Source: an uncultured Candidatus Saccharibacteria bacterium (GTDB taxonomy: Bacteria > Patescibacteriota > Minisyncoccia > UBA6257 > GWB1-50-10). Taken from it: a DNA stretch of 64,000 nt. Every line of letters starts with the position of its first letter. Positions within the stretch are counted from its first letter, which is position 1. The notes beneath the pieces were generated by a model. The model was not told where the DNA came from, made no database searches, and saw only the letters and a list, made by a program, of their open reading frames with translations. Below, piece after piece: positions 29 to 59,189 of this stretch. The stretch spans positions 11,719 through 75,718 of the forward strand of contig CAYHLH010000001.1 of the NCBI GenBank assembly GCA_964357525.1, read 5' to 3'. The position numbers and the translations under genes are program-made.

Positions 29-222
29 GCCAATCTTATTTGCGAGCGGAGCGAGCAATCATAAGATTGCGCACCCGCCCAAGTTTTTTGGATTTTGCCG
101 ACTTCTTTATCATTGTTATTTTCATAATGGTATCAATTCTATTTACCCGTATAATTGCAAAAATTTGGGCGGGTAAGGTTTTGTCATCAAAATTTCTTCG
201 AAATTTTGAACAAAGCCCTTAT
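29..222 (-). promoter_or_regulatory. Conserved upstream leader module, copy A (hairpin H0 + long inverted-repeat stem P1 + short uORF) abutting the gene at window start
   Basis: P1 arms GCACCCGCCCAAGTTTTTTGG (71-91) and CAAAAATTTGGGCGGGTAAGG (158-178). H0 hairpin TCAAAATTTCTTCGAAATTTTGA (186-210) followed by CAAAGCCC. uORF MIARSARK* at 36-62 (minus). Homologous to copies B-G. Confidence 0.6.
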
Positions 223-314: not shown

Positions 315-725
315 TTATGATTTTTTTTCACGTTTTGCTCCATATTTTGACCGTTGTTGTTTTCTCTTATTAACTCCCTGCGTGTCGAGAACTCCCCTCA
401 CGATGTGGTAGCGCACGCCCGGAAGGTCCTTGACCCTGCCTCCGCGGATGACGACCACCGAGTGCTCCTGGAGGTTATGCCCCTCGCCCGGGATGTAGGC
501 GGTCACCTCCATGCCGTTCGTGAGCCGCACGCGAGCGACCTTCCTAAGGGCCGAGTTCGGCTTCTTCGGGGTCGTGGTGAACACCTTCACGCACACGCCT
601 CTCTTGAAGGGCGAGGCGGAAAACACCGGGTTGTTCTTGATCATGTACATACCCAAAGCCGGCGCTTTGTTCTTTTTCTGCGCTCTTGTCCTCCCTTTTC
701 GTATCAATTGTCCTACGGTTGGCAT
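315..725 (-). CDS. rpsL: 30S ribosomal protein S12
   Basis: ORF 315..800 contains [12 protein letters not shown]...[11 protein letters not shown]...; start reset to the ATG at 725 giving a ~136 aa S12-length protein. Confidence 0.9.
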
Positions 726-1005
726 GCCGATGTTATTCGCGAACGGAGTGAGCGACCATATTTTCATATGAATAGTTCGCTCGGTCAAAATGAAAACCAA
801 CGCTTTTCATTTCTCCCTCGCTGCTATCCATAACATCGAGCACCCGCCCAAGTTTTTGGGCGCGTGTCGACTCTTTCACCATTGATTGTTTCATTGTTAT
901 ATTCATTGTGCAGGCCTTTGTTGTTTGAAAATTTGGGCGGGTAAGGTTTGGTCAATCAAAAAACCCTCGCCTACGGCTTGGGTTTTTTGAACCAAGCCCT
1001 TAAAA
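726..1005 (-). promoter_or_regulatory. Conserved upstream leader module, copy B (diverged proximal part, long uORF) directly upstream of rpsL
   Basis: P1 arms GAGCACCCGCCCAAGTTTTTGGG (837-860) / GAAAATTTGGGCGGGTAAGG (927-946). H0 TCAAAAAACCC...GGGTTTTTTGA then ACCAAGCCC. uORF of 32 codons at 733-831 starting ATGGATA like other copies and ending TAA-CATCGGC-ATG(rpsL). Confidence 0.6.
733..831 (-). CDS. candidate leader peptide (uORF, 32 aa: [32 protein letters not shown]) upstream of rpsL
   Basis: In-frame ATG...TAA on minus strand; the start context ATGGATA and the stop-to-ATG spacing are shared with uORFs of other module copies. Confidence 0.3.
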
Positions 1006-1091: not shown

Positions 1092-1724
1092 TCAAACCCC
1101 CACAAAAAGGCGGAAGAGGAACTCAACCGCGGGAAAGAGGAAATTGAGCCCCGAAAAGATGAGGACGAGGAGGATGATGAACCCGTAGCGCTCCAAAAAC
1201 GCCTGGGCTGCTTCGGTCCCGCGCGGGAGAAGCCAGAACAGGATCTTGCTGCCGTCCAAGGGAGGGATAGGGATGAGGTTGAAGATCGCGAGGGCGATGT
1301 TGATTATGATGACCGAGGCGATGAGCGGCTCGACGGCGCCGAACCCTCCGCCCGCGCGGTATGCGAGCGCGAACACGAGTGCAAGCACGACGTTCGCCGC
1401 TGGCCCCGCGAGCGCGATCAAAGCCCCTCCCTTCTTAGGGTCTTTCAGATTATAGGGATTGTAGGGAACGGGCTTCGCCCACCCGAACACGACGCCGCCG
1501 GGAATCAAGGATAGGAGGAGCGGGAGCGCCACGGACCCTATGGGATCTATGTGCTTCAACGGGTTCAGGGTCAATCTCCCCGCAAGGCGCGCGGTGTGGT
1601 CGCCGAGCTCGAGTGCCATAAGCCCGTGCGATACCTCGTGCACCACGACGGAAAACAGCAGCACCAACAGCTGAAATACGAAGAAAAATTCCATTTTGTT
1701 CTGAAGCTTGATTATATCACGCAA
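1092..1724 (-). CDS. Site-2 protease family zinc metallopeptidase (M50)
   Basis: HEVSHG HExxH motif and multiple TM segments; the true start may be the internal MEFFF at ~1694. Confidence 0.75.
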   Translation of the reverse strand: MRDIIKLQNKMEFFFVFQLLVLLFSVVVHEVSHGLMALELGDHTARLAGRLTLNPLKHIDPIGSVALPLLLSLIPGGVVFGWAKPVPYNPYNLKDPKKGGALIALAGPAANVVLALVFALAYRAGGGFGAVEPLIASVIIINIALAIFNLIPIPPLDGSKILFWLLPRGTEAAQAFLERYGFIILLVLIFSGLNFLFPAVEFLFRLFVGV

Positions 1725-1748
1725 ATCTCGTATTCTACAGGCACGAAA

Positions 1749-2384
1749 ATGAAGAGGATAATCATCATTCTCATCGCGGTCGTCGTCATTATGGTGGGCT
1801 TTCTGGGCACTCTTTACTACCTCGTCATGCGTTCGGCGCTAGAGGAACCCGAGGCGGGAACGTCCGCGCAAACGGGGATCATGGGACTCTTCTTCAAGAA
1901 TCCCGAAACGGTGAACCCGAGTGCTTTCGTAACCACGACGACGTCCAGCGGCACCACCGTCATACAGATCGGCACAACTACGGTAACGACCGAGGCGCTC
2001 GTTGAGATCCCGACCTCCATCGTGTACATAGCGAGCGAAGCGCCGGAGAAAGTGGTGCTCTCGATCGAGAGCGTCGGCAAGACCGACAAGGGGACGGTGC
2101 TCGTCGCGCTCCGCGTATTCACGCTCGAAGCGTCGCGCGCGACCTCCATTAATCCCGCCGACTTCCTCGCGCTCATCCCTCCCGAGGGGAACGAGACGAG
2201 GCCGGACTTCATCCAGGGCAACTTCACAAACATGGCGCCGGGAGGGAACTACCAGGGGAACGCGATTTTCACGGTGCCCGCAGGGAGGACTTCCATCATC
2301 CTCCAGGTTGGGCGGGGTGAAGGCGTCGTCTTCTTCGAATTCAACTTCGCCAACAAGACATTCCGGCAGGTTGAAATAAGTTAA
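1749..2384 (+). CDS. Hypothetical membrane-anchored protein (N-terminal TM helix, Thr/Val-rich extracellular domain)
   Basis: ORF 1551..2384 trimmed to the internal ATG at 1749 (MKRIIIILIAVVVIMVGFLG...) to avoid overlap with the protease gene. Confidence 0.5.
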   Translation: MKRIIIILIAVVVIMVGFLGTLYYLVMRSALEEPEAGTSAQTGIMGLFFKNPETVNPSAFVTTTTSSGTTVIQIGTTTVTTEALVEIPTSIVYIASEAPEKVVLSIESVGKTDKGTVLVALRVFTLEASRATSINPADFLALIPPEGNETRPDFIQGNFTNMAPGGNYQGNAIFTVPAGRTSIILQVGRGEGVVFFEFNFANKTFRQVEIS

Positions 2385-2597
2385 GATTTTGTATAAAATC
2401 TGAATTCAGTGAGAATTTTATAAACAAAATCTTACCCACCCAAATTTTTAAAAGATAAAACATTATGACGAAACAATTCAATCAATTAAAAGGCAGTCAC
2501 CGCGATATCCCAACAATCGTTCAAAAACTTGGGCGGGTGCTCAATTCTATGGATAAATTTTTATCGCCGACTGACTCAAAAATTTATATATAATCGG
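2385..2597 (+). promoter_or_regulatory. Conserved upstream leader module, copy C (opposite orientation, serving the plus-strand bL28 gene)
   Basis: Reverse complement carries GATTATATATAAATTTTTGAGTC...GATAAAAATTTATCCATAGAATTGAGCACCCGCCCAAGTTTTTG; second P1 arm CTTACCCACCCAAATTTTT at 2431-2450. uORF MDKFLSPTDSKIYI* at 2549-2593 ends 5 nt before the ATG at 2599. Confidence 0.65.
2549..2593 (+). CDS. candidate leader peptide MDKFLSPTDSKIYI (uORF) upstream of rpmB-like gene
   Basis: ATG GAT AAA TTT TTA TCG CCG ACT GAC TCA AAA ATT TAT ATA TAA; conserved in copies D and G. Confidence 0.35.
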   Translation: MDKFLSPTDSKIYI

Positions 2598-7696: not shown

Positions 7697-8239
7697 TTAT
7701 ACCACCCGTCTCCCGCCTTCCGCCTTCCCTCGGCGGGAAACTAGCCACTTCGCCGCAAGGAACGACACTAGCGCGATGAGGAATCCCGCGACGATGTCGC
7801 TGGGCCAATGGACGCCCGAGGCGACCCGTGCGAGGGAAACGACCGCCGCGGCGACGAAGAACCATAACGCCCATTCCCGGCGCACATGCCACATCGCGAA
7901 CGCGACGGCGAATAGCAATGCCGCATGCCCCGAGGGAAACGAGCCGCCGGACGCGGTGAAAAGCGGCTTCAGGCCAAGAACCTCATACGGGCGGCCGCGG
8001 TCTATGAGAAACCCCACGATCTCCGCAATGACGCCGCGCGAGAGAAGCAGGACGAGCGCGGTGAAAAGCGCATCGTGTATGCGCGCGCGCCTCCCCTTTT
8101 CGGAGAGAAGAAGCCATAAGGCGAAGGCGCCGACGAGCCACGGCAGATAAACCGCCAGGGAGACCAATACGAAATTAAAAAAAGAGAGCCGCTCGGCAAT
8201 CTGGTAGAAGAACTGAAATAAGAGAAGATCGAGGGCCAT
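7697..8239 (-). CDS. PAP2 family phosphatase (undecaprenyl-diphosphatase-like)
   Basis: SFPSGHA and GVHWPSDI PAP2 motifs; membrane protein. Confidence 0.8.
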   Translation of the reverse strand: MALDLLLFQFFYQIAERLSFFNFVLVSLAVYLPWLVGAFALWLLLSEKGRRARIHDALFTALVLLLSRGVIAEIVGFLIDRGRPYEVLGLKPLFTASGGSFPSGHAALLFAVAFAMWHVRREWALWFFVAAAVVSLARVASGVHWPSDIVAGFLIALVSFLAAKWLVSRRGKAEGGRRVV

Positions 8240-8246
8240 TATGCAC

Positions 8247-8447
8247 TTAATTTCTGGTGAACGGCAGAAGCCCTAAAATGCGCGCGCGCTTGATGGCGCC
8301 GGCGAGCTGCCTCTGGTGCGAAGCGCACACGCCGGTGTGCCGCGGATCGATGATCTTCGCCTGCGAGGACACGAAACGCCTCAACACCTCGACGTTCTCG
8401 TGATCGATGATCTTGACATTCTGGGAACAAAAAAAGCACTGGCGCAT
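8247..8447 (-). CDS. rpsR: 30S ribosomal protein S18
   Basis: CFFC...IDHENVEVLRRFVSSQAKI.PRHTGVCASHQRQL..AIKRARILGLLPF. Confidence 0.9.
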   Translation of the reverse strand: MRQCFFCSQNVKIIDHENVEVLRRFVSSQAKIIDPRHTGVCASHQRQLAGAIKRARILGLLPFTRN

Positions 8448-8662
8448 GCCGATTATATATAAATTTTCGAGTCCACCGACGATGAAAATTTATCCATAGA
8501 ATCGAGCACCCCGCACATAATATGCCGATTCGACGATGTATAATATTCTATTTTACTCCTGTTGTTCATAAAATTAATTTTAATGAATCGCTTATGTGCA
8601 GGGTTTAGGTTTGGTAATCAAAAATTCTTCGCCCGCGGCTCGAATTTTTGAACCAAGCCCTA
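8448..8662 (-). promoter_or_regulatory. Conserved upstream leader module, copy D (type-2 P1 stem), between ssb stop and rpsR start
   Basis: P1 arms GAGCACCCCGCACATAA (8504-8520) / TTATGTGCAGGGT (8592-8604). H0 TCAAAAATTCTTCGCCCGCGGCTCGAATTTTTGA then ACCAAGCCC. uORF MDKFSSSVDSKIYI* at 8453-8497, stop 5 nt before rpsR ATG. Confidence 0.65.
8453..8497 (-). CDS. candidate leader peptide MDKFSSSVDSKIYI (uORF) upstream of rpsR
   Basis: ATG GAT AAA TTT TCA TCG TCG GTG GAC TCG AAA ATT TAT ATA TAA on the minus strand. Confidence 0.35.
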   Translation of the reverse strand: MDKFSSSVDSKIYI

Positions 8663-9124
8663 AAACGGAATATCCTCCGATTTTATCTCCTCGTCTATGG
8701 AGACCTCCGGCACCGCCTCATCGCTCGCCGGCGCGTCGGGAGTGAAGTTGTCTCCCGTATCCTGTGAGGAGGAATCCTGCGGGAATCCTCCGCGGTCGCT
8801 GCGGGGTCCGAGCTGCAGCCGCTCCCCGACTATCTCTGTGGTCTTCCTGGGATGCCCTTCCTTGTCGGTCCACGCCCTCGTCTGCAGCCTACCTTCGACG
8901 AGCGCCGACGCGCCCTTCCTTAAGAACTGGTTCGCGATCTCAGCTTGGCGCCCCCACAGGACCACGGTGTGGAATTCGGCCCTCTTCTGCTTCTCCCCGC
9001 TCTTCGAGGTGAAAAAGCTGTTCGTGGCGAGCGAGAGCGTGCACACGGACTGCCCCGTCGGCGTCTGCCGGAAATCGGGGTCCCGCGTCAGATTTCCCAT
9101 GATGAAGACCTTATTGAGGTTCAT
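8660..9124 (-). CDS. ssb: Single-stranded DNA-binding protein
   Basis: MNLNKVFIMGNLTRDPDFRQTPTGQSV OB-fold N-terminus and acidic C-terminal tail ending DIPF. Confidence 0.9.
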   Translation of the reverse strand: MNLNKVFIMGNLTRDPDFRQTPTGQSVCTLSLATNSFFTSKSGEKQKRAEFHTVVLWGRQAEIANQFLRKGASALVEGRLQTRAWTDKEGHPRKTTEIVGERLQLGPRSDRGGFPQDSSSQDTGDNFTPDAPASDEAVPEVSIDEEIKSEDIPF

Positions 9125-28322: not shown

Positions 28323-28500
28323 GGCTCTGTGATCTGAACTCTGAGCGAACGACCATGAGCGAAATGAATTCAGTTATCACGGAGAGCACCCCGCACATAA
28401 CCGATATATTTCGCTCTTCCCACACACAACTCTCAAAACTTGTAAAAACCCCCTTTTGTCGATTGAGAGTGTTATGTGCGGGGTCCGCAGTTTCATAGAC
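28323..28500 (-). promoter_or_regulatory. Conserved upstream leader module, copy E (type-2 P1 stem; degenerate uORF) upstream of mraZ
   Basis: P1 arms GAGCACCCCGCACATAACC (28383-28401) / GTTATGTGCGGGGTCC (28470-28485); proximal segment homologous to copy D but without an intact uORF. Confidence 0.55.
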
Positions 28501-28731
28501 TCGCTCTGCTCGTATGAAACTGGGAGTTATCCCCAGAAGAGGGTACTTATCCACATATTTACCCACAATTCCCCACTTCGCCCTCATACTACACCACAAT
28601 GCGGGAAATGAAAAAGCAAATTTCCGGAGGAGCCAAAAACGCTCTTTTTGCTGTAGAAAAATGGCGTGGTGCCGGAGTTATCAACAGAGCAAAATGCCAA
28701 GCGTCAAAAGATAACGTAGAATTGAGAAATC

Positions 28732-31215: not shown

Positions 31216-31289
31216 CGGTGACCCTCCTTTCCGTTATAAGATTTTAAAATTCTCACCTTCTTTCTACCCCGCCGGACGCGCGGCGTCAA

Positions 31290-31329
31290 CCCGGTAGTAG
31301 AAACTCGATATCGAGTTTCTACTACCGGG
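31290..31329. repeat. 40-nt perfect palindrome CCCGGTAGTAGAAACTCGATATCGAGTTTCTACTACCGGG
   Basis: Arms identical to the terminal inverted repeats of the element at 37619-37760. Confidence 0.8.
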
Positions 31330-31819
31330 TCAATACCTAAAAAAAGGCCCTCGCGGTGAGGAAGGCCTTATTATTTATACGCATGAACCCAAAGGTTCTA
31401 TATGAATACAGGAGGAGAAAACAAAAAGCTACGACCAGCGTAACTTCGAACGGAACGGGCGTCAATCCCGTTAGAGAAACGGGTTTTGAGTCATGCTCAA
31501 GCGCCGGTTCATACCTTTCGGATAAGGTGTAAAAGAAAATATAAGCATAATGGAATTAAAAACCCGCATGACTATTCTCTAACGGGATCGACCCCCAAAC
31601 GAAAAGCCCACGACGGGGCGTATGAGCGCGAAAGAACCCCGATGAAAGATTCCCGACAAAGAATCAAGTGGGTTTCCGCAATTCAGTGGGTTAGAAAATC
31701 GGAGGTAGTACCAATTCTCTGTCCGACCGAAAGATGTAGGAATCCCTTTGAAAAATAATTTAGTTCGGAATCTTTTCTCCAGGGTTCTGTCTGTATTATA
31801 CCACTCGGGGTTTATGTCA

Positions 31820-31890
31820 AAAGATTGACCCCCACACCAAATTATGTCTGTGCAAGGACCACCCCTAAAACCGGGTATTGGTGTGGGGGT
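31820..31890 (-). terminator. Large hairpin (CCCCCACACCAA...TTGGTGTGGGGG) immediately 3' of ndk
   Basis: 12-bp GC-rich stem with 37-nt loop. Confidence 0.4.
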
Positions 31891-35892: not shown

Positions 35893-36303
35893 CTATCGCT
35901 TTATTTTAAAGCGAAACTTTCTTTCTTCCCCGCTTTTTCGACAGTTCGGTGATTTCCCCTCTTCGGTGATGGCGATCCTATCCTCCTCGCTTTCCCCTTC
36001 CGGCGGGGACACCACGAACGATGTCTTTTCCTTGGTGCGGTCGTCCGTCACTTTCGCGATCTTTTCGGTGACGACGTTGTCCGCGCGGAGGATGAATACC
36101 TTGAGGCGGCGGAGGAATTTCTCGAACCACACCTTCAGCACCTCGTCCGCATGCTCGAGCATGAGCGTGAGCTCGTGCGTCCTGATGCGCGAACGGCTTT
36201 CCAGGAACACCTCGTTCGAAACCCTGGGGAGCGCGCGAAGGGCCAACACGATGACCCCCGCAAGCCCCGCGAACACCGCTATTTCGAAGATGAACGACCA
36301 CAT
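35893..36303 (-). CDS. Hypothetical membrane protein (N-terminal TM, charged coiled-coil C-terminus)
   Basis: 136 aa; start abuts leader module copy F. Confidence 0.5.
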   Translation of the reverse strand: MWSFIFEIAVFAGLAGVIVLALRALPRVSNEVFLESRSRIRTHELTLMLEHADEVLKVWFEKFLRRLKVFILRADNVVTEKIAKVTDDRTKEKTSFVVSPPEGESEEDRIAITEEGKSPNCRKSGEERKFRFKIKR

Positions 36304-36500
36304 GCGAATGATGTCTAAATTTTCGAGTGCCGCCGTAGCGATGAAAATTTAGCCACAACATTCAGCACCCGCCTAAGTTTTTGAATTTCTATTACGGACT
36401 TTCCCATGTCTATATTATACATCTTCAAAAATTTGGGCGGGTAAGATTCGGTACTCAAAAATCCCTCGCCTTTGGCTCAGATTTTTGAACCGAGCCCTTA
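36304..36500 (-). promoter_or_regulatory. Conserved upstream leader module, copy F
   Basis: P1 arms CAGCACCCGCCTAAGTTTTTG / CAAAAATTTGGGCGGGTAAG; H0 CTCAAAAATCCCTCGCCTTTGGCTCAGATTTTTGA then ACCGAGCCC; possible GTG-initiated uORF (M)AKFSSLRRHSKI* at 36315-36356. Confidence 0.6.
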
Positions 36501-37908: not shown

Positions 37909-38958
37909 CTAAATAAACCTCGCCATGAAGAAAAGTATGAGGCCGAGTATGGTCATCACGCCGGAGATTATCCAGAAACGCATGGTCACCTGCGTTTCGG
38001 GCCAGCCGAGCCCCTCGAAGTGGTGGTGGATGGGCGTGGAAAGGAAGAGCTTACGCCCGAGGAGCTTCTTGTGGAGAACCTGGATGATGACGGAGCCCGA
38101 CTCGATGAGGAGGATGAATCCGAAGAATGGGAGGAAAAGGGCCGTGTTCGTGAACATCGCCATGACCCCGAGGGTGATGCCGAGCCCCATCGAACCCGTG
38201 TCCCCCATGAAGAACTTCGCGGGATGCACGTTGTACCAGAGGAACGCCAAAAGCGCCCCCAATATCGCCGCGTTCATCGCCGCGAGGTCGAACCGGTTCA
38301 TGATGAAGGACACGATGGCCATGGCACAGAACGAGAAGAAGAGCACTCCGCCTGAAAGTCCGTCCAGGCCGTCCGTCTCGTTCGCGGAGAACGCCGTCGC
38401 GACCACCACGAACACGAAGAAAAGCATGTACCACGCGCCGAGGTCCACGAGCCCGAGGAACGGAACGTAGATCTCGCTCCAGCCGAGCCGTATGTGGAAC
38501 CACCACGCGCCTATGAGCGACACCAGTGTGTAGAGCGCGAGCTTGTGCTTGATGGTGATGCCGCCGCCCTTGCCGGACCCCTTCCCGATGATGCCCCAGA
38601 AATCGTCGATGAATCCGACAATGGCGCCGAAAGCCAATGCCGCGAGCGGCACATAGGTCTCGGGGCGGGAAACGAAGTTCAGGTATCCGAGAAATCCGTC
38701 GAAGGCGAGGTCTCCAAGGAAAAGTATGACGGCGAGCCCCAACACCGTACCCCATATGATGACGCCGCCCATCGTCGGCGTGTCGAATTTGTGCTTGTGA
38801 TGCTCGTAAAAAACGGGCGCGGTCGCCGCGTCGCGGATGTTCCTCTTCTTCAGCCCGTACTTGAGGAGCGCGCGGTACACGAAGGGCGTGATGCCCAAGG
38901 CCACGATGAACGCGATGGCGAAAACTATGAGCGCGCGTATGCTTTCGAAAACTTCCAT
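37909..38958 (-). CDS. mraY: Phospho-N-acetylmuramoyl-pentapeptide-transferase
   Basis: 10-TM MraY with MGDTGSMGLG motif. Confidence 0.9.
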   Translation of the reverse strand: MEVFESIRALIVFAIAFIVALGITPFVYRALLKYGLKKRNIRDAATAPVFYEHHKHKFDTPTMGGVIIWGTVLGLAVILFLGDLAFDGFLGYLNFVSRPETYVPLAALAFGAIVGFIDDFWGIIGKGSGKGGGITIKHKLALYTLVSLIGAWWFHIRLGWSEIYVPFLGLVDLGAWYMLFFVFVVVATAFSANETDGLDGLSGGVLFFSFCAMAIVSFIMNRFDLAAMNAAILGALLAFLWYNVHPAKFFMGDTGSMGLGITLGVMAMFTNTALFLPFFGFILLIESGSVIIQVLHKKLLGRKLFLSTPIHHHFEGLGWPETQVTMRFWIISGVMTILGLILFFMARFI

Positions 38959-38963
38959 GCCGA

Positions 38964-39008
38964 TTATATATAAATTTTCGAGTCTGCCAACGATGAAAAT
39001 TTATTCAT
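38964..39008 (-). CDS. candidate leader peptide MNKFSSLADSKIYI (uORF) upstream of mraY
   Basis: ATG AAT AAA TTT TCA TCG TTG GCA GAC TCG AAA ATT TAT ATA TAA; stop 5 nt before the mraY ATG. Confidence 0.35.
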   Translation of the reverse strand: MNKFSSLADSKIYI

Positions 39009-39039
39009 AAAATCGAGCACCCGCCTAAATTTTTGAATC

Positions 39040-39297
39040 TTATTTTTCATTGATAGTGTGAGAGAGAATCTTCTTCATATAATTTCTTCCCCATCCGGTC
39101 TTGAAATATTGTTCACGTTGCATGGCATCCTTTTGATTTCTATACAACTCACAATAAATCAGTTCCCATGGCCTCTTGTTTTTCGTTGAATGTACCCTAC
39201 CTTTTTGATGCTCCTCAACCCGCCTCTTTATATCTTGAGAATAGCCGACATATACACTTTTGTCTCTTTTACTCCTCAAAATGTAGATGCCATACAT
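39040..39297 (-). CDS. GIY-YIG nuclease family protein (UPF0213-like, 85 aa)
   Basis: MYGIYILRS...VYVGYSQDIKRRVEEH...KRPWEL; ORF 39040..39333 trimmed to the second Met because the first 12 codons are simply the P1 arm sequence. Confidence 0.75.
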   Translation of the reverse strand: MYGIYILRSKRDKSVYVGYSQDIKRRVEEHQKGRVHSTKNKRPWELIYCELYRNQKDAMQREQYFKTGWGRNYMKKILSHTINEK

Positions 39298-39354
39298 ATT
39301 CAAAAATTTTGGCGGGTAAGGTTTTCTTACCACGCCACGGCGTGGAGAAAGCCC

Positions 39355-40323
39355 TCAAAACTCATACGCCTGTTCCATCCAGGCAAGCACCGACGCGACC
39401 TCTTTCACCCTGTCGGGGCTCCCCAATATGATAACCGCGATGCGGAAATCTTTGAATGCGAGCACCGCGGCGAGGTTCTGGCGCGCCACATCTGACGTGC
39501 CCGTTTTCCCGCCGAGGAACAGCTTGTCCGAGACGAACGGATTGATGTTCGTTTCCGTTCGGAACTCCGTGGTGTTCGTCGGCTGCACGAGATAGTTCAC
39601 AAGTCGCGTCCAGTTCAGGATCTCCGGATGTTTCTCGTATATGTATTCGGTGAGAATGAACATGTCCTCCGCGCTCGTGAGGTTCGTGTCCGCAAGCCCC
39701 GACGCGTCGTTCAGAATCGTCCCTCGCATCCCGAGCTCGCCCGCCTTCTTGTTCAATAACCGGTTCATCTCCGCCTTTCCTCCCGCGAAATCCTCGAACG
39801 CCGCCGCCGCGCGGTTCGAGGAGGTGAGGAGCATTATCTTCAGGAGATCGCCCGAAAGGTACACTTCCCCGCTTTTGAGCCCTCCCGCAACGCCTTCCGC
39901 GAGCATTGCCCGTTCGGTGACCGGCACTTTCCGCTGATTGCCGTACTGTTCAAGGACCACGACGGCCGTGAGAAGCTTTGAGAGCGACGCCGCGGGCCAC
40001 GTCTCGCGCGTGCGGTAGCGGAAGAACGGGAAATCCTCGTCGAGCGACTGGACGAGCACCGCCTGCGCCTCGATGGTGGGGTCCAACACTTCCCATTTCC
40101 GCTCGGGAAGCCGCTTGTTCGAAGGCCTCGTGTTCTGCGAGAGGGCGTCCGAGCCGTACCCGGTCGATGTCGGCGAGCCCGAAACGTCTATCGTGCGAGA
40201 CGTGAAGAGCGCGCCGAAATCCCCTCCGTAAAAGACGAAGAACACTATGCCTCCCGCGACGAGCGCGGTTCCGACGACCGCGAATGCGGCGTTCCCGGTT
40301 TTCTTGAGGATTTCCCTAAGCAT
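39355..40323 (-). CDS. D-alanyl-D-alanine carboxypeptidase (serine peptidase S11)
   Basis: SLSKLLTAVV (SxxK) motif, N-terminal TM. Confidence 0.7.
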   Translation of the reverse strand: MLREILKKTGNAAFAVVGTALVAGGIVFFVFYGGDFGALFTSRTIDVSGSPTSTGYGSDALSQNTRPSNKRLPERKWEVLDPTIEAQAVLVQSLDEDFPFFRYRTRETWPAASLSKLLTAVVVLEQYGNQRKVPVTERAMLAEGVAGGLKSGEVYLSGDLLKIMLLTSSNRAAAAFEDFAGGKAEMNRLLNKKAGELGMRGTILNDASGLADTNLTSAEDMFILTEYIYEKHPEILNWTRLVNYLVQPTNTTEFRTETNINPFVSDKLFLGGKTGTSDVARQNLAAVLAFKDFRIAVIILGSPDRVKEVASVLAWMEQAYEF

Positions 40324-58141: not shown

Positions 58142-58411
58142 CTACTCAGGACTTTCAGCACCGCTCGTTTTTTTTATTAAAGAGAGTTTTTTGTCTCTGC
58201 GCCAGCCTTTGATTTCCTTTTCCCTGCGCCGTGCTTCTACAAGAGTTTTGAACTTCTCTGAATGTGCCAAAGCGACAGGCCGACGGATCTTCGTGTAATG
58301 AGCACCCCATTTTGAGTTGTTGTGCTGTTCTATTCTCCTTTTAAGATTATTCGTACAACCCACGTACAATGATTCGTCGTCGCACCGGAGAATATAAACA
58401 AAATACCCCAC
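58142..58411 (-). CDS. GIY-YIG nuclease family protein (UPF0213-like, 89 aa)
   Basis: MGYFVYILRCDDESLYVGCTNNLKRRIEQH; flanked by repeats that resemble the tRNA-Gln 3' end. Confidence 0.75.
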   Translation of the reverse strand: MGYFVYILRCDDESLYVGCTNNLKRRIEQHNNSKWGAHYTKIRRPVALAHSEKFKTLVEARRREKEIKGWRRDKKLSLIKKTSGAESPE

Positions 58412-58525: not shown

Positions 58526-58700
58526 GCTGCGGGACAGGGAATCGAATCTCTAGGTCTCTGACCGGGACCCCGGTCGCTTCGCGACCTAGGGGCCCCAATT
58601 TTTTGGTTTCCCTAGGTCTCTGACCGGGACCCCGGTCGCTCCGCGACCTAGGGGCAGAGCCATGTGTCCTATCCCTAGGTAAATTTATGCCTTTTCCTGC
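58526..58700 (-). pseudogene. Disrupted tRNA-Gln-like copy interrupted by two 44-nt palindromic elements
   Basis: 3' part GATTCGATTCCCTGTCCCGCAGC and 5' part GGATAGGACACATGGCTCTG match the intact tRNA-Gln; two copies of CCTAGGTCTCTGACCGGGACCCCGGTCGC(T/C)(T/C)CGCGACCTAGGGG lie between them; no acceptor pairing. Confidence 0.5.
58551..58653. repeat. Tandem pair of 44-nt hairpin-rich palindromic elements (third copy at 59029-59074)
   Basis: CCTAGGTC...GACCTAGG outer stem, GACCGGGACCCCGGTC inner palindrome; three copies within 550 nt. Confidence 0.7.
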
Positions 58701-58710
58701 TATCCAAAGC

Positions 58711-58781
58711 TGCGGGACTAGGAATCGAACCTAGATTCCATGGTTCAGAGCCATGTATCCTACCGTTAGATGATCCCGCAG
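58711..58781 (-). tRNA. tRNA-Gln (anticodon CTG)
   Basis: Reverse complement TGCGGGATCATCTAACGGTAGGATACATGGCTCTGAACCATGGAATCTAGGTTCGATTCCTAGTCCCGCAG. Confidence 0.75.
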
Positions 58782-58789
58782 CTTTGGAT

Positions 58790-59025
58790 ACCAATAACTT
58801 TTTAAGCTTACCGCCCCACGGGGTGTACTTCAACGCCCATTCCTTTTTACGAGCTTCAGATAATGATTTAAAGAATTCACTGTATACTAACCGCAAGGGG
58901 CGTCTGAATCTCGTACTTTTGACCTTGCCGCCATTGTGAGTAACAATCCTCTTCTCAAGATTCATACAGGTTCCTGTATAAAAATTTCCATCTTTTTCGC
59001 TTTTCAAAATATAAAGATACGGCAT
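58790..59025 (-). CDS. GIY-YIG nuclease family protein (UPF0213-like, ~78 aa)
   Basis: MPYLYILKSEKDGNFYTGTCMNLEKRIVTHN; ORF 58675..59082 is open through tRNA-Gln, so the 3' end is approximate; start trimmed to MPYLYIL; preceded by the third copy of the 44-nt palindrome. Confidence 0.65.
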
Positions 59026-59189
59026 AAATTTACCGGGACCCCGGTCGCTTCGCGACCTAGGGGCCGTTAGACGATCCCGCAATGGTTTACCTGCGGCAGA
59101 CAGGCATTTTTGATATTAGCGCACTCTATTTTTGAAAACAATCCCGACGTAAGGTCGATACTCCGACTGAAACGTCGGAGGAAATCAAA

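Follow-up and report, generated by a model that had tools for sequence, protein, structure and literature searches.

ACCC-tagged palindromic repeats associated with a GIY-YIG nuclease gene in Patescibacteria

The paired stem located at 8504–8604 of the window (the whole stretch of DNA analyzed, 64,000 nt in length) belongs to one copy of a modular repeat unit that adjoins core genes, and another copy of the same unit holds a GIY-YIG nuclease gene within its palindrome. These units probably form a repeat family that is analogous to REP/RAYT or MITE elements and is linked to the GIY-YIG nuclease, with base pairing under selection. Because the palindrome is present in multiple copies and its loop is able to hold a GIY-YIG gene, the element looks more like undescribed mobile DNA than a conventional RNA gene.

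Results and Discussion

Organization of the repeat units

Each unit consists of a leader/promoter module that meets the ATG of the next gene, followed by a palindrome (P1) and a proximal hairpin (H2). P1 is an inverted repeat of 13–23 bp that starts with ACCC and ends with GGGT in every case. The P1 loop contains 5 nt, an insert of 60–80 nt, or a gene for a GIY-YIG nuclease of 83–88 aa and the UPF0213/SLX1 type (loop up to ~300 nt), and the minimal copies (loci L001, L004, L006, L012, and L013) are hairpins of only 37–43 nt. H2 is a two-tier hairpin with AAGGTTT...AAAGCCCTT as its frame, and in many units it extends as far as the preceding gene's stop codon (as in copies C, D, F, and G of the window, as well as L015 and L017). 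The triplet TAA is often found at both ends of the unit, preceding GGGC at one end and lying between TATA and TCGGC at the other; in copies D and G, it is replaced by TAG and TGA, respectively. The sequence TATAAT-CGGC-ATG was considered as the −10 box of a leaderless mRNA, but rpsL in the window retains its own promoter (TTGACC-N17-GAAAAT) approximately 45 nt upstream. The TAA in this sequence could also terminate a small ORF located upstream.

Seven copies of P1 (A to G) are present in the window, and the flanking sequence is common to all seven (Table 1). The division of these copies into two sequence families, as proposed in a preliminary description of this DNA, holds. Copies A, B, C, F, and G have the arm ACCCGCC(C/T)AA(G/A)TTTTTG paired with CAAAAATTT(G/T)GG(C/T)GGGT, and copies D and E have ACCCCGCACATAA paired with TTATGTGC(A/G)GGGT. 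The wording given for the arms of the first family was less exact, as the prefix GAGC is actually GCGC in copy A and CAGC in copy F, and the T/C alternative in the 3′ arm stems from copy C having been read on the opposite strand. The distance between the arms ranges from 38 to 260 nt in the window copies. The type-2 arms of copy E (28388–28401 and 28471–28484) pair perfectly, and in this copy the standard H2 is replaced by another hairpin at ~28488–28523.

Table 1. Positions of the repeat units, their parts, and associated features in the window.
Feature	Position	Strand	Remarks
Copy A	73..220	+	Between rpsL (315–725, minus strand) and rpsG start (26–28); P1 arms 73–88 and 159–174; H2 175–220
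Copy B	842..1001	+	Upstream of rpsL; P1 arms 842–856 and 928–942; H2 943–1001
Copy C	2383..2538	-	Between stop of ORF 1551..2384 and rpmB (L28, start 2599, + strand); P1 arms 2522–2538 and 2434–2450; H2 2383–2433
Copy D, leader/promoter module, beta type	8448..8507	-	Between P1 and rpsR (S18) start codon 8445–8447
Copy D, P1 5′ arm	8508..8520	+	ACCCCGCACATAA, arm type 2
Copy D, P1 interior	8521..8591		71 nt between the arms, AT-rich
Copy D, P1 3′ arm	8592..8604	+	TTATGTGCAGGGT; lone C.A mismatch (+ strand), equal to G.U (- strand)
Copy D, proximal hairpin H2	8608..8659	+	Outer stem GGTTTGGT/ACCAAGCC, inner stem TCAAAAATTC/GAATTTTTGA, cap GCC-CGC-GGC
Copy E	28388..28484	+	Upstream of mraZ (start codon 28320–28322)
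Further ACCC..GGGT palindrome	31289..31330		Other arm type (ACCCGGTAGTAGAAACTCGAT); 19 bp, perfect
Further ACCC-tagged palindrome	31828..31890		ACCCCCACACCAA / TTGGTGTGGGGGT
Copy F	36367..36497	+	Between tsf (stop codon 36498–36500) and ORF 35893..36303; P1 arms 36367–36385 and 36424–36442; H2 36443–36497
Copy G	39019..39354	+	Between PBP/peptidase S11-like gene (stop 39355–39357) and mraY (start 38956–38958); P1 arms 39019–39038 and 39298–39317; H2 39318–39354
GIY-YIG nuclease gene, 85 aa	39040..39297	-	Fills P1 loop of copy G; same strand as flanking genes

For copy D, the predicted stem was found, with 12 of the 13 pairs between its two arms being Watson–Crick. The 105-nt stretch of this copy has folding z-scores of −2.8 (+ strand) and −4.2 (- strand), and its H2 reaches −5.0 on both strands. 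This H2 abuts CTA at 8660–8662, which is the complement of the ssb stop codon (ORF 8660..9124). On the other side of P1, the leader module contains an inverted repeat (AAATTTTC..GAAAATTT) and has TATATATAATCGGC immediately 5′ of the ATG. This module is 93% identical to 38956–39022, which is itself located upstream of mraY (repeat family D7).

A scan of the window for ACCC...GGGT inverted repeats yielded 11 matches, compared to a mean of 1.7 and a maximum of 5 among 100 shuffles. Two of these matches use the same 3′ arm (31890), such that the matches represent 10 distinct palindromes. Chance does not account for these palindromes. The arm type of the palindrome ending at this 3′ arm also surrounds distant GIY-YIG genes in L021 and L023. 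The window genes that adjoin the units are core genes (rpsL, rpsG, ssb, rpsR, rpmB, mraZ, mraY, and tsf), and rRNA genes are absent from the window.

Covariation and the nature of the folded molecule

The preliminary description took compensatory changes in P1 and in the proximal hairpin as the sign of a selected structure. All of the hairpin pairs that it quoted were found (AATTTC/GAAATT, AAACCC/GGGTTT, AATTC/GAATT, and AATC/GATT). An H2 set of 25 copies, drawn from the window plus 17 other loci, has 93% of its cells paired, and 13 of the 16 pairs have changed on both sides. The H2 covariation score is 0.638, compared to 0.197 in shuffles (0 of 500 reach 0.638) and at most 0.18 in slid registers. 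For P1, the 32 distinct arm pairs have 95.9% of positions paired and a score of 0.688 (0.155 in the comparison), and all nine variable pairs covary; since this set was gathered by demanding pairing, the diversity of arm types is informative and the percentage paired is not. At least 12 arm types are present, every one of which is self-complementary, and the ACCC...GGGT ends are paired and invariant in all 32 arm pairs. The retention of pairing through complete changes of the helix sequence, in both P1 and H2, indicates that a folded or self-complementary form has been preserved. The preliminary description had named arms that are the termini of a recent insertion, and identical by descent, as evidence against its interpretation. 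Half of this applies, in that the arms are the inverted termini of an insertion-like repeat that close relatives gain and lose. The other half does not, as the joint change of both arms shows that simple identity by descent is not the explanation.

Symmetry of this kind may also arise in neutral sequences. Template switching in imperfect inverted repeats turns them perfect, and such "quasipalindrome" correction during replication could restore the palindromes with no selection involved. This explanation accommodates the several perfect arms (e.g., copy E, 31289–31330, and L027), but it leaves unexplained the invariant ACCC/GGGT ends over at least 12 arm types and the persistent non-Watson–Crick position 11 of the type-1 arms, in addition to the conserved modular flanks, the nested nuclease gene, and a conservation of 89% versus about 55% (see below). 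It is thus regarded as very improbable.

The compensatory changes do not show an RNA here. The same covariation would be expected from a DNA hairpin or from transposon-like ends that match each other. A known RNA family was rejected, as an Rfam scan of the whole window at the gathering threshold found only tRNAs, and scans of 1–2700 and 8400–8700 at E ≤ 1 found nothing or matches at chance level (15–16 bits). Intron models likewise had no match in these scans.

Nevertheless, each copy might be a free-standing small RNA gene that is antisense to the flanking genes, with an RNA composed of P1 and H2 and a transcription start at ~GCACCC, 3–5 nt downstream of a TAnAAT-like box. Such a hexamer is present at this distance 5′ of GCACCC in nearly all copies. 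On that strand, which is the one read in the preliminary description, P1 has 26 G.T pairs and three A.C mismatches, although most of these wobbles are inherited rather than independent (~9 and 3 independent events, respectively). A conserved U.G in H2 is found in 23 of 25 copies, and for 21 of the 27 H2 sequences that strand is the more stable one (mean −1.15 kcal/mol, Wilcoxon p = 0.012). However, the wobble of copy D lies on the opposite strand, which also gives the better fold for this copy (−26.5 kcal/mol on the - strand versus −23.5 kcal/mol on the + strand), and four of the six listed minimal-hairpin loops (L001, L004, L006, and L013) read GC-GNA-GC on the other strand. Given this disagreement among indicators, the assignment of a folding strand from wobble pairs and loops was dropped. 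A small RNA gene is also difficult to reconcile with a loop that varies from 5 to ~300 nt and may contain an antisense protein gene, with a helix sequence that varies by arm type inside one genome, with the sense orientation of the L010 unit (between rpsC and rplP), and with the lack of an Rfam match even at E ≤ 1. Taken together, these points make a small RNA gene quite improbable.

A GIY-YIG nuclease gene nested in P1

The product of the gene in copy G matches PF01541 (E = 2e-18). Its nearest relatives with a solved structure are UPF0213 (E = 6.5e-10; 1zg2 and 1ywl, E about 1e-9) and SLX1 (E = 3e-6). Across 19 homologues, the catalytic residues Y5, Y16, R26, H30, and E62 show no or almost no variation. 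The homologous proteins (83–93 aa) comprise the catalytic domain alone, with the DNA-binding domain absent. Inverted repeats enclose all 17 nuclease homologues whose flanks could be read, and the loci in which they are nested are non-homologous (PBP-mraY, mraY-amidohydrolase, rpmG-PCMT, rplN-rplX, a TraG-like region, and others). Moreover, the arm type follows the protein clade, with ACCCGCCyAArTTTTTG for the GWGRNY clade, ACCCCCACACC for the KLRSKAF clade, and CCCCGTGAGATA for P0019. The arms of copies A, B, C, and F are common to the nuclease-bearing copies G, L015–L019, L026, L033, and L034. None of the nuclease genes among the homologues found has type-2 arms, which is the type of copy D.

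An inverted repeat was looked for around E. coli yhbQ (25% identical) and is absent. Comparison of the nuclease with PHROGs gave one weak match with no assigned function, and PADLOC gave weak partial matches only. Searches of viral contigs for the arm motif and for the nuclease protein found neither, such that no vector is evident. In a full-text literature search, GIY-YIG genes nested in palindromes, or such repeats in Patescibacteria, were not found to be described.

The 60–80 nt interiors were considered as decayed remnants of the nuclease gene. A likeness between copies D and G noted by eye (AGGAGTAAAATAGA / AGGAGTAAAAGAGA) failed the test of alignment against shuffles, and the similarity of the copy D interior to GIY-YIG ORFs is not significant (p = 0.17). 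Local alignments of 12 ORF-less interiors with seven GIY-YIG ORFs against shuffles all gave p > 0.15. Descent of the ORF-less interiors from the nuclease gene by deletion is therefore not detectable, and the classical MITE relationship fails.

Distribution and turnover among genomes

A search with one 21-nt arm motif returned 14 loci, of which ~11 are genuine units. All are from Patescibacteria MAGs, including Wolfebacteria, Kaiserbacteria, Tagabacteria, and others, with the same flanks and with P1 loops down to 5 nt. The unit is specific to Patescibacteria (candidate phyla radiation; CPR). The evidence as a whole comes from ~35 loci, many of which are on short metagenome contigs.

The locus L027 represents a close relative, with 91% identity in S12 and the same order of genes between rpoC and fusA. 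This relative lacks copies A and B, such that M50 and rpsL are separated by 80 nt, rpsL and rpsG overlap (ATGA), and rpsL has an ordinary promoter (TTGACT-N17-TAATCT); both copies are missing in L028 too. The empty sites in these two loci overlap or diverge too far to fix the unit boundaries for a target-site duplication. The ssb-rpsR site, which holds copy D in the window, is occupied in L027 by a unit with different arms (ACCCCGTGAGATA). Between PBP and mraY, the gap is 10 nt in L016, and a nuclease-bearing copy is present at this site in the window and in L015. Copy C is kept at the same site in L027 (8507–8611) with its leader module swapped. The P1 and interior of this copy are 89% identical between the window and L027, whereas third codon positions of the five neighbor genes are 49–66% identical (about 55% at synonymous positions). 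The conservation of copy C is far above the level of synonymous sites. Together with the strong orientation bias of the units (P1 5′ side toward the gene start in 22 of 24 copies, flanks read by eye), this conservation is as compatible with an element that is useful to the host as with a selfish one. Neither transposition nor cleavage was observed across the compared loci.

These patterns bear on an alternative in which the unit serves the host as a cis-regulatory RNA module. In this case, H2 would be a 3′-end hairpin or terminator of the upstream gene, P1 a processing stem (e.g., for RNase III), and the remaining module a leader or promoter of the next gene, with the GIY-YIG gene as a secondary parasite homing into the loops of P1. 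The conservation of copy C well beyond the neutral expectation, the orientation bias, and the junction of H2 with stop codons in the copies named above are all consistent with such a role. The absence of copies from the same sites in close relatives, with rpsL and rpsG overlapping and an ordinary promoter for rpsL, argues against it, as does the occupation of one site by units with different arms. In addition, the arm sequences are identical across classes, which is beyond the need of a processing stem. A terminator role for H2 finds some basis in ~9 of the 27 H2 sequences, in which an A-tract and a T-tract form the lower part of the inner stem around a small G+C clamp and resemble bidirectional terminators; however, the remaining H2 lack a U-tract on either strand, and a terminator consensus scan of the window is not enriched (13 found versus 12.5 expected). 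H2 is therefore not a canonical terminator in general. The far higher number of ORF-less than ORF-bearing copies agrees with the host-module reading, as do the non-intron GIY-YIG insertions reported in CPR rRNA genes, mostly at stem-loops (PMC11270868). When these points are weighed together, a host regulatory module seems unlikely.

Proposed mechanism and implications

As a possible and still tentative explanation, the units may represent a new class of prokaryotic mobile elements, in which a loop-encoded minimal UPF0213/SLX1-like GIY-YIG nuclease cuts the hairpin or cruciform of ACCC-tagged palindromes and thereby spreads itself and ORF-less palindromes through the streamlined CPR genomes. 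SLX1 cleaves branched and hairpin-like DNA and acts jointly with SLX4. For the units, whose mobility we infer from sequence comparison, the palindrome probably folds, either as a hairpin or cruciform at the DNA level or as a long stem when transcripts read through it. The fold with its conserved ACCC/GGGT base would be the substrate of the nested structure-specific nuclease, and breaks at the fold would be repaired using other copies as the template. Such repair copying could carry the gene, as well as entire modules, from one copy to another and to further sites between genes, with ORF-less copies such as A–F being non-autonomous. We propose that the 3′ hairpin within each copy, together with a leader/promoter that serves the next gene, allows copies to persist inside operons. 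Since this mechanism needs complementary arms, it would explain the compensatory changes. Two points that count against this mechanism are that GIY-YIG enzymes are hydrolytic nucleases, which are not known to catalyze strand transfer, and that a protein of 85 aa lacks a DNA-binding domain.

Approximately ten units are present in the 64 kb of the window despite the very small and tightly packed genomes of Patescibacteria, and several of these lie within operons for ribosomal proteins and cell division. Colonization of such genomes by a repeat family that supplies both a 3′ hairpin and a leader for the following gene is relevant to operon expression and rearrangement in this large, uncultured group. 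Furthermore, because the gene of a domain-only GIY-YIG nuclease is consistently nested in the palindrome, the ACCC-based hairpin becomes a testable substrate for a protein family that lacks a known function. If the proposal is true, the system would be a GIY-YIG counterpart of REP/RAYT and would give this UPF0213 branch its first function. The units may also account for the GIY-YIG-encoding non-intron insertions in CPR rRNA genes. For annotation, covariation alone is not enough to call these units sRNA genes.

Comparison with known systems

The closest proteins to the copy G nuclease by sequence are UPF0213/YhbQ and SLX1, although no inverted repeat encloses E. coli yhbQ. The GIY-YIG homing endonucleases I-TevI and phage Seg proteins have the same Tyr, Tyr, Arg, His, and Glu catalytic residues. 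Similar to the units, GIY-YIG homing genes occur sporadically at otherwise conserved sites and within structured, dispensable sequence. However, the gene described here encodes a catalytic domain of ~85 aa alone, without a linked DNA-binding domain; it is enclosed by inverted repeats rather than an intron or intein, and it is not found in viral contigs. In CPR rRNA genes, GIY-YIG-encoding insertions that are unlike introns of group I or group II have been described, and insertions of all kinds are mostly at the top or base of stem-loops (PMC11270868). These insertions share the phylum and the protein family with the units but are located in rRNA genes. The units also differ from integron attC sites, as their ends are ACCC/GGGT and not the R″/R′ core (RYYYAAC/GTTRRRY), and their neighbors are core genes rather than cassettes.

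Correia-like MITEs resemble the units in size (100–300 bp), inverted termini, intergenic location, dozens of copies, and presence/absence between relatives, as well as in outward promoter-like sequences and a long stem upon co-transcription. As in MITEs, the terminal inverted repeats of copies A, B, C, and F are common to the gene-bearing copy G. In contrast to MITEs, the short units did not arise from the gene-bearing ones by detectable internal deletion, and the termini are of many types that have only ACCC in common. At the loci compared, no target-site duplication could be delimited. The Correia elements of Neisseria are not known to carry a nuclease gene, unlike the units.

The REP/BIME repeats with RAYT ("REPtrons"), which include GTAG- and CGTC-tagged palindromes (Di Nocera et al., 2013; PMC3733652), also share features with the units. 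Both are high-copy extragenic palindromes, mostly 3′ of genes, with several families per genome and a short invariant tag at the hairpin base; both may be transcribed within mRNAs, and in both an enzyme gene is flanked by repeats that are thought to be its substrate. The tag is paired (ACCC/GGGT) in the units, whereas the GTAG or CGTC tag is unpaired (PMC3733652). REP palindromes have 20–40 bp, compared to 37–43 nt for the minimal hairpins of the units, and the window copies are longer with their added modules. The enzyme also differs, being GIY-YIG (PF01541) in the units and an HUH/Y1 (IS200/IS605-like) transposase in RAYT, and its gene lies inside the loop of one palindrome rather than between two REP hairpins. 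Finally, the units add a second hairpin and a leader/promoter module, and their hosts are Patescibacteria.

Copies in the Window and Anatomy of the Unit

In the flagged copy (copy D), the central inverted repeat with ACCC/GGGT ends (P1) has arms ACCCCGCACATAA and TTATGTGCAGGGT, which pair over 13 bp with one mismatch and are separated by 71 nt. The adjoining proximal hairpin (H2) is two-tiered and folds with z = -5 on both strands. All six further copies, which the preliminary description had listed together with two arm families, are present as listed, with type 1 arms (ACCCGCCyAArTTTTTG) in copies A, B, C, F, and G and type 2 arms (ACCCCGCACATAA) in copies D and E. An inverted-repeat scan of the window gave 11 matches, corresponding to 10 distinct palindromes versus 1.7 expected, such that the observation is beyond chance. 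An AT-rich region of 0.7 kb that lacks genes holds two more ACCC...GGGT palindromes, both with other arm types. The second has the arm type that surrounds distant GIY-YIG genes at L021 and L023 (L numbers denote loci fetched from other genomes), and only a weak GcvB-like match (24 bits versus a gathering score of 42), probably due to chance, lies between the two.

Read on the same strand as its flanking genes (the gene strand), the unit runs from the upstream stop codon through H2 (frame AAGGGCTT...AAACCTT), P1, and a leader/promoter module of 45-110 nt to the ATG of the next gene. The upstream stop codon directly abuts the element in copies C, D, F, and G and is 70-90 nt further upstream in copies A and B; copy E, located between divergently transcribed genes, has no upstream stop. 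The neighbors are core genes (rpsL, rpsG, rpmB, ssb, rpsR, mraZ, tsf, and mraY). Two recurrent leader/promoter modules, alpha (copies A, B, and E) and beta (C, D, G, and less clearly F), precede unrelated genes, and the beta modules of D and G are 93% identical despite different P1 arms. In 22 of 24 copies, as read by eye from the flanks, the 5' side of P1 points toward the start of a gene. Motifs resembling GAGCGAAGCGAG/CTCGCTTCGCTC recur in element loops and leader modules across genomes (L001, L005, L010, L015, and window positions 40-60 and 740-760); their core, GCGAAGC, is a very stable DNA mini-hairpin.

Positions of the features in the window
Feature	Position	Strand	Context
Copy D, P1 arms	8508-8520 and 8592-8604		
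Copy D, H2	8608-8659		
Copy D site, ssb stop codon	8660-8662	-	
Copy D site, rpsR start codon	8445-8447	-	
Beta leader modules	2539-2598, 8448-8507, 38959-39018		
Alpha leader modules	29-72, 726-841, 28323-28387		
Additional palindromes	31289-31330 and 31828-31890		Gene-free stretch
Small ORF, copy C	2467-2595	+	
Small ORF, copy D	8455-8586	-	
GIY-YIG gene, first	58169-58405	-	Flanks tRNA-Gln
GIY-YIG gene, second	58798-59025	-	Flanks tRNA-Gln
tRNA-Gln	58709-58780		
Further stretches of the same region	58547-58655, 59018-59079		Near tRNA-Gln

Covariation and the Question of an RNA Gene

Because H2 copies were collected solely by way of the P1 arm and the AAGGTT motif, the H2 3' half and inner stem are unbiased. 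Among 25 copies, 93% of cells are paired and both sides have changed in 13 of 16 pairs. The covariation score is 0.638, compared with 0.197 in shuffles (0 of 500 reach it) and at most 0.18 in slid registers. For P1, all nine variable pairs covary; as this set was pre-selected for pairing, only the diversity of arm types counts as evidence. Given the covariation in H2 and P1, the earlier inference that pairing is preserved is sound, and a selected, paired structure is supported.

The reading of this structure as an RNA gene on the strand antisense to the flanking genes is not established, and a palindromic repeat element associated with a nuclease is the more likely explanation. On that antisense strand, P1 has 26 G.T pairs versus three A.C mismatches, or about nine versus three independent events, since most G.T pairs represent one inherited position 11. 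Also consistent with an RNA gene are a conserved U.G in H2 in 23 of 25 copies, an H2 that is more stable there in 21 of the 27 copies compared (p = 0.012), and a TAnAAT-like hexamer just upstream of GCACCC. However, copy D has its wobble and the better fold on the gene strand, where four of six listed minimal hairpins have GC-GNA-GC loops, a very stable DNA mini-hairpin motif. Moreover, the P1 loop can hold an antisense gene, the L010 unit is in sense orientation between rpsC and rplP, and no Rfam family was matched. The sequence indicators thus contradict each other, both on the folding strand and on RNA versus DNA.

A Nuclease Gene Nested in P1

In copy G, an 85-aa ORF of the gene strand takes up the 260-nt P1 loop and encodes a GIY-YIG domain, with UPF0213 proteins and the SLX1 nuclease domain as the closest solved relatives. 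The catalytic residues are conserved across 19 GIY-YIG homologs. When the flanks of all fetched homologs were inspected, 17 were readable and all 17 genes lie between inverted repeats, with the left arm ending 0-40 nt ahead of the ATG and the right arm beginning at or a few nt from the stop codon (overlapping the last codons in L017 and L030). These loci are unrelated (PBP-mraY, mraY-amidohydrolase, rpmG-PCMT, rplN-rplX, a conjugation-like region, and others), and the arm type tracks the protein clade. No such nesting was found in the flanks of E. coli yhbQ, a distant relative, and none of the loci seen has a nuclease gene with type 2 arms. At L019 2925-2961, a solo mini-hairpin (ACCCGCTTAAGTTTTGC-AGA-GCAAAATTTTGGCGGGT) adjoins a nuclease-bearing copy in opposite orientation and is absent from the otherwise near-identical L026.

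The window contains two more GIY-YIG genes (tblastn E = 4e-13 and 4e-20, respectively), the second of which has an ORF that runs into the tRNA-Gln gene and a duplicated tRNA 5' half (TGCGGGATCGTCTAACGG) upstream. Repeats of CCCCTAGGTCGCGAAGCGACCGGGGTCCCGG break up tRNA-like fragments. The region has the appearance of insertions linked to a nuclease, either within a tRNA gene or beside it.

Among the ORF-less copies A-F, the gene-strand frame in which the 3' arm encodes ..QKLGRVL.. or ..CGVL.. is stop-free through the interior in all six (no stops in about 126 codons versus about 7.6 expected from other frames). Copies A, B, C, D, and F have ATG-started ORFs of 29-57 aa that end with TAA or TAG 5-11 nt ahead of the next ATG; in copy E, the sole in-frame ATG falls within the 3' arm, and the frame has no stop ahead of the mraZ ATG. 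The small ORF is open in the L027 ortholog and L018 paralog, where substitutions have no third-position bias, and other genomes are mixed (10 of 18 copies stop-free). These ORFs may serve as a translated spacer for translational coupling with the downstream gene.

Distribution and Turnover

Species-representative genomes were scanned once with a 21-nt motif taken from the 3' arm, yielding 14 loci. About 11 of these are genuine, all in Patescibacteria MAGs with the same flanks. The organism of the window also falls within Patescibacteria, judging from its S12 homologs. The P1 copies of a Wolfebacteria MAG are bare hairpins whose loops have 5 nt (CTTCG, CTGCG, or CTCCG). A Tagabacteria contig (L008; CAWGAO010000008.1, 417-6849) has eight palindromes with the ACCC tag, belonging to at least five arm types, within 8 kb, a density far above that of the window; many are flanked by ATCATC...TTCTCAAAA or TTAAGAAAA. 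In total, the window and fetched loci have at least 12 arm types, all self-complementary, starting with ACCC and ending with GGGT. At L002 (JAGVCW010000021.1, ~2230-2400), the unit is in sense orientation, with its 3' arm and TAAGG motif reaching into the leader peptide at the start of a type IV pilin-like ORF (..GFTLVEVLVAAALFALI).

The close relative L027 (GCA_041643275.1) has the same rpoC-to-fusA gene order as the window and 91% identical S12. Copies A and B are absent from the same sites in L027, as indicated by an 80-nt M50-rpsL spacer with an ordinary sigma-70-like promoter and an rpsL/rpsG overlap (ATGA), and also in L028. The ssb-rpsR site of L027 has an element with different arms (ACCCCGTGAGATA) and flanks, and its rpsG-fusA site has a type 2 element. 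In L016, a gap of 10 nt separates PBP from mraY, the site of the nuclease-bearing copy in the window and L015, and such a copy is located after mraY instead. Copy C is common to the window and L027, with a beta module in the former and an alpha module in the latter, implying recombination between copies. Thus, the time since close relatives diverged is long enough for units, and modules within them, to be gained, lost, and exchanged. P1 and the interior of copy C are 89% identical between the window and L027 (86% for the interior alone), compared with 49-66% at the third codon positions of rpsL, rpmB, rpsR, ssb, and the M50 peptidase gene. Both copy C versions are 77-79% identical to a paralog found elsewhere in the relative (L018, ~7990-8100). 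These similarities mark the element as more than junk and reflect either sequence constraint or homogenization of copies by exchange.

Proposed Mechanism and Comparison with Known Systems

For the favored reading as a nuclease-associated repeat element, we infer nuclease-driven cleavage and movement of the units. The palindrome with its ACCC/GGGT base would be the substrate of the nested, likely structure-specific nuclease, and breaks there would be repaired from other copies by homology in the shared H2 and leader modules (tens of bp). Such copy-templated repair would spread the nuclease gene among palindromes and shuffle modules, with ORF-less copies being non-autonomous. Copies may survive within operons because they supply a 3' hairpin and leader/promoter to the downstream gene, which may also explain the orientation bias. 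Transcripts that read through the unit would pair the two arms around the nuclease ORF, and the resulting long stem, ending at the ATG of this ORF, would keep the gene silent unless transcribed from within, which resembles fold-back inhibition in IS10 and IS50. Several points count against this model. GIY-YIG enzymes are not known to perform strand transfer, no target duplication was found at the elements, and the absence of a nuclease with type 2 arms among the loci seen weakens it. In alignments, the short interiors are also not detectable derivatives of the nuclease gene.

The literature searched has no description of a nuclease-nested palindrome arrangement, and this element appears undescribed. 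In logic, the nearest analogs are REP/RAYT and Correia-type MITEs. REP/RAYT systems likewise combine tagged palindromes with an enzyme gene flanked by them (PMC3733652), but their defining enzyme class and tag both fail here, as does the deletion-derivative relationship of Correia-type MITEs. GIY-YIG homing endonucleases are defined by a DNA-binding domain and by residence in an intron or phage, both of which the nested nuclease lacks. Finally, CPR rRNA genes are reported to carry GIY-YIG-encoding insertions that are not introns (PMC11270868), and these may be the same kind of element.
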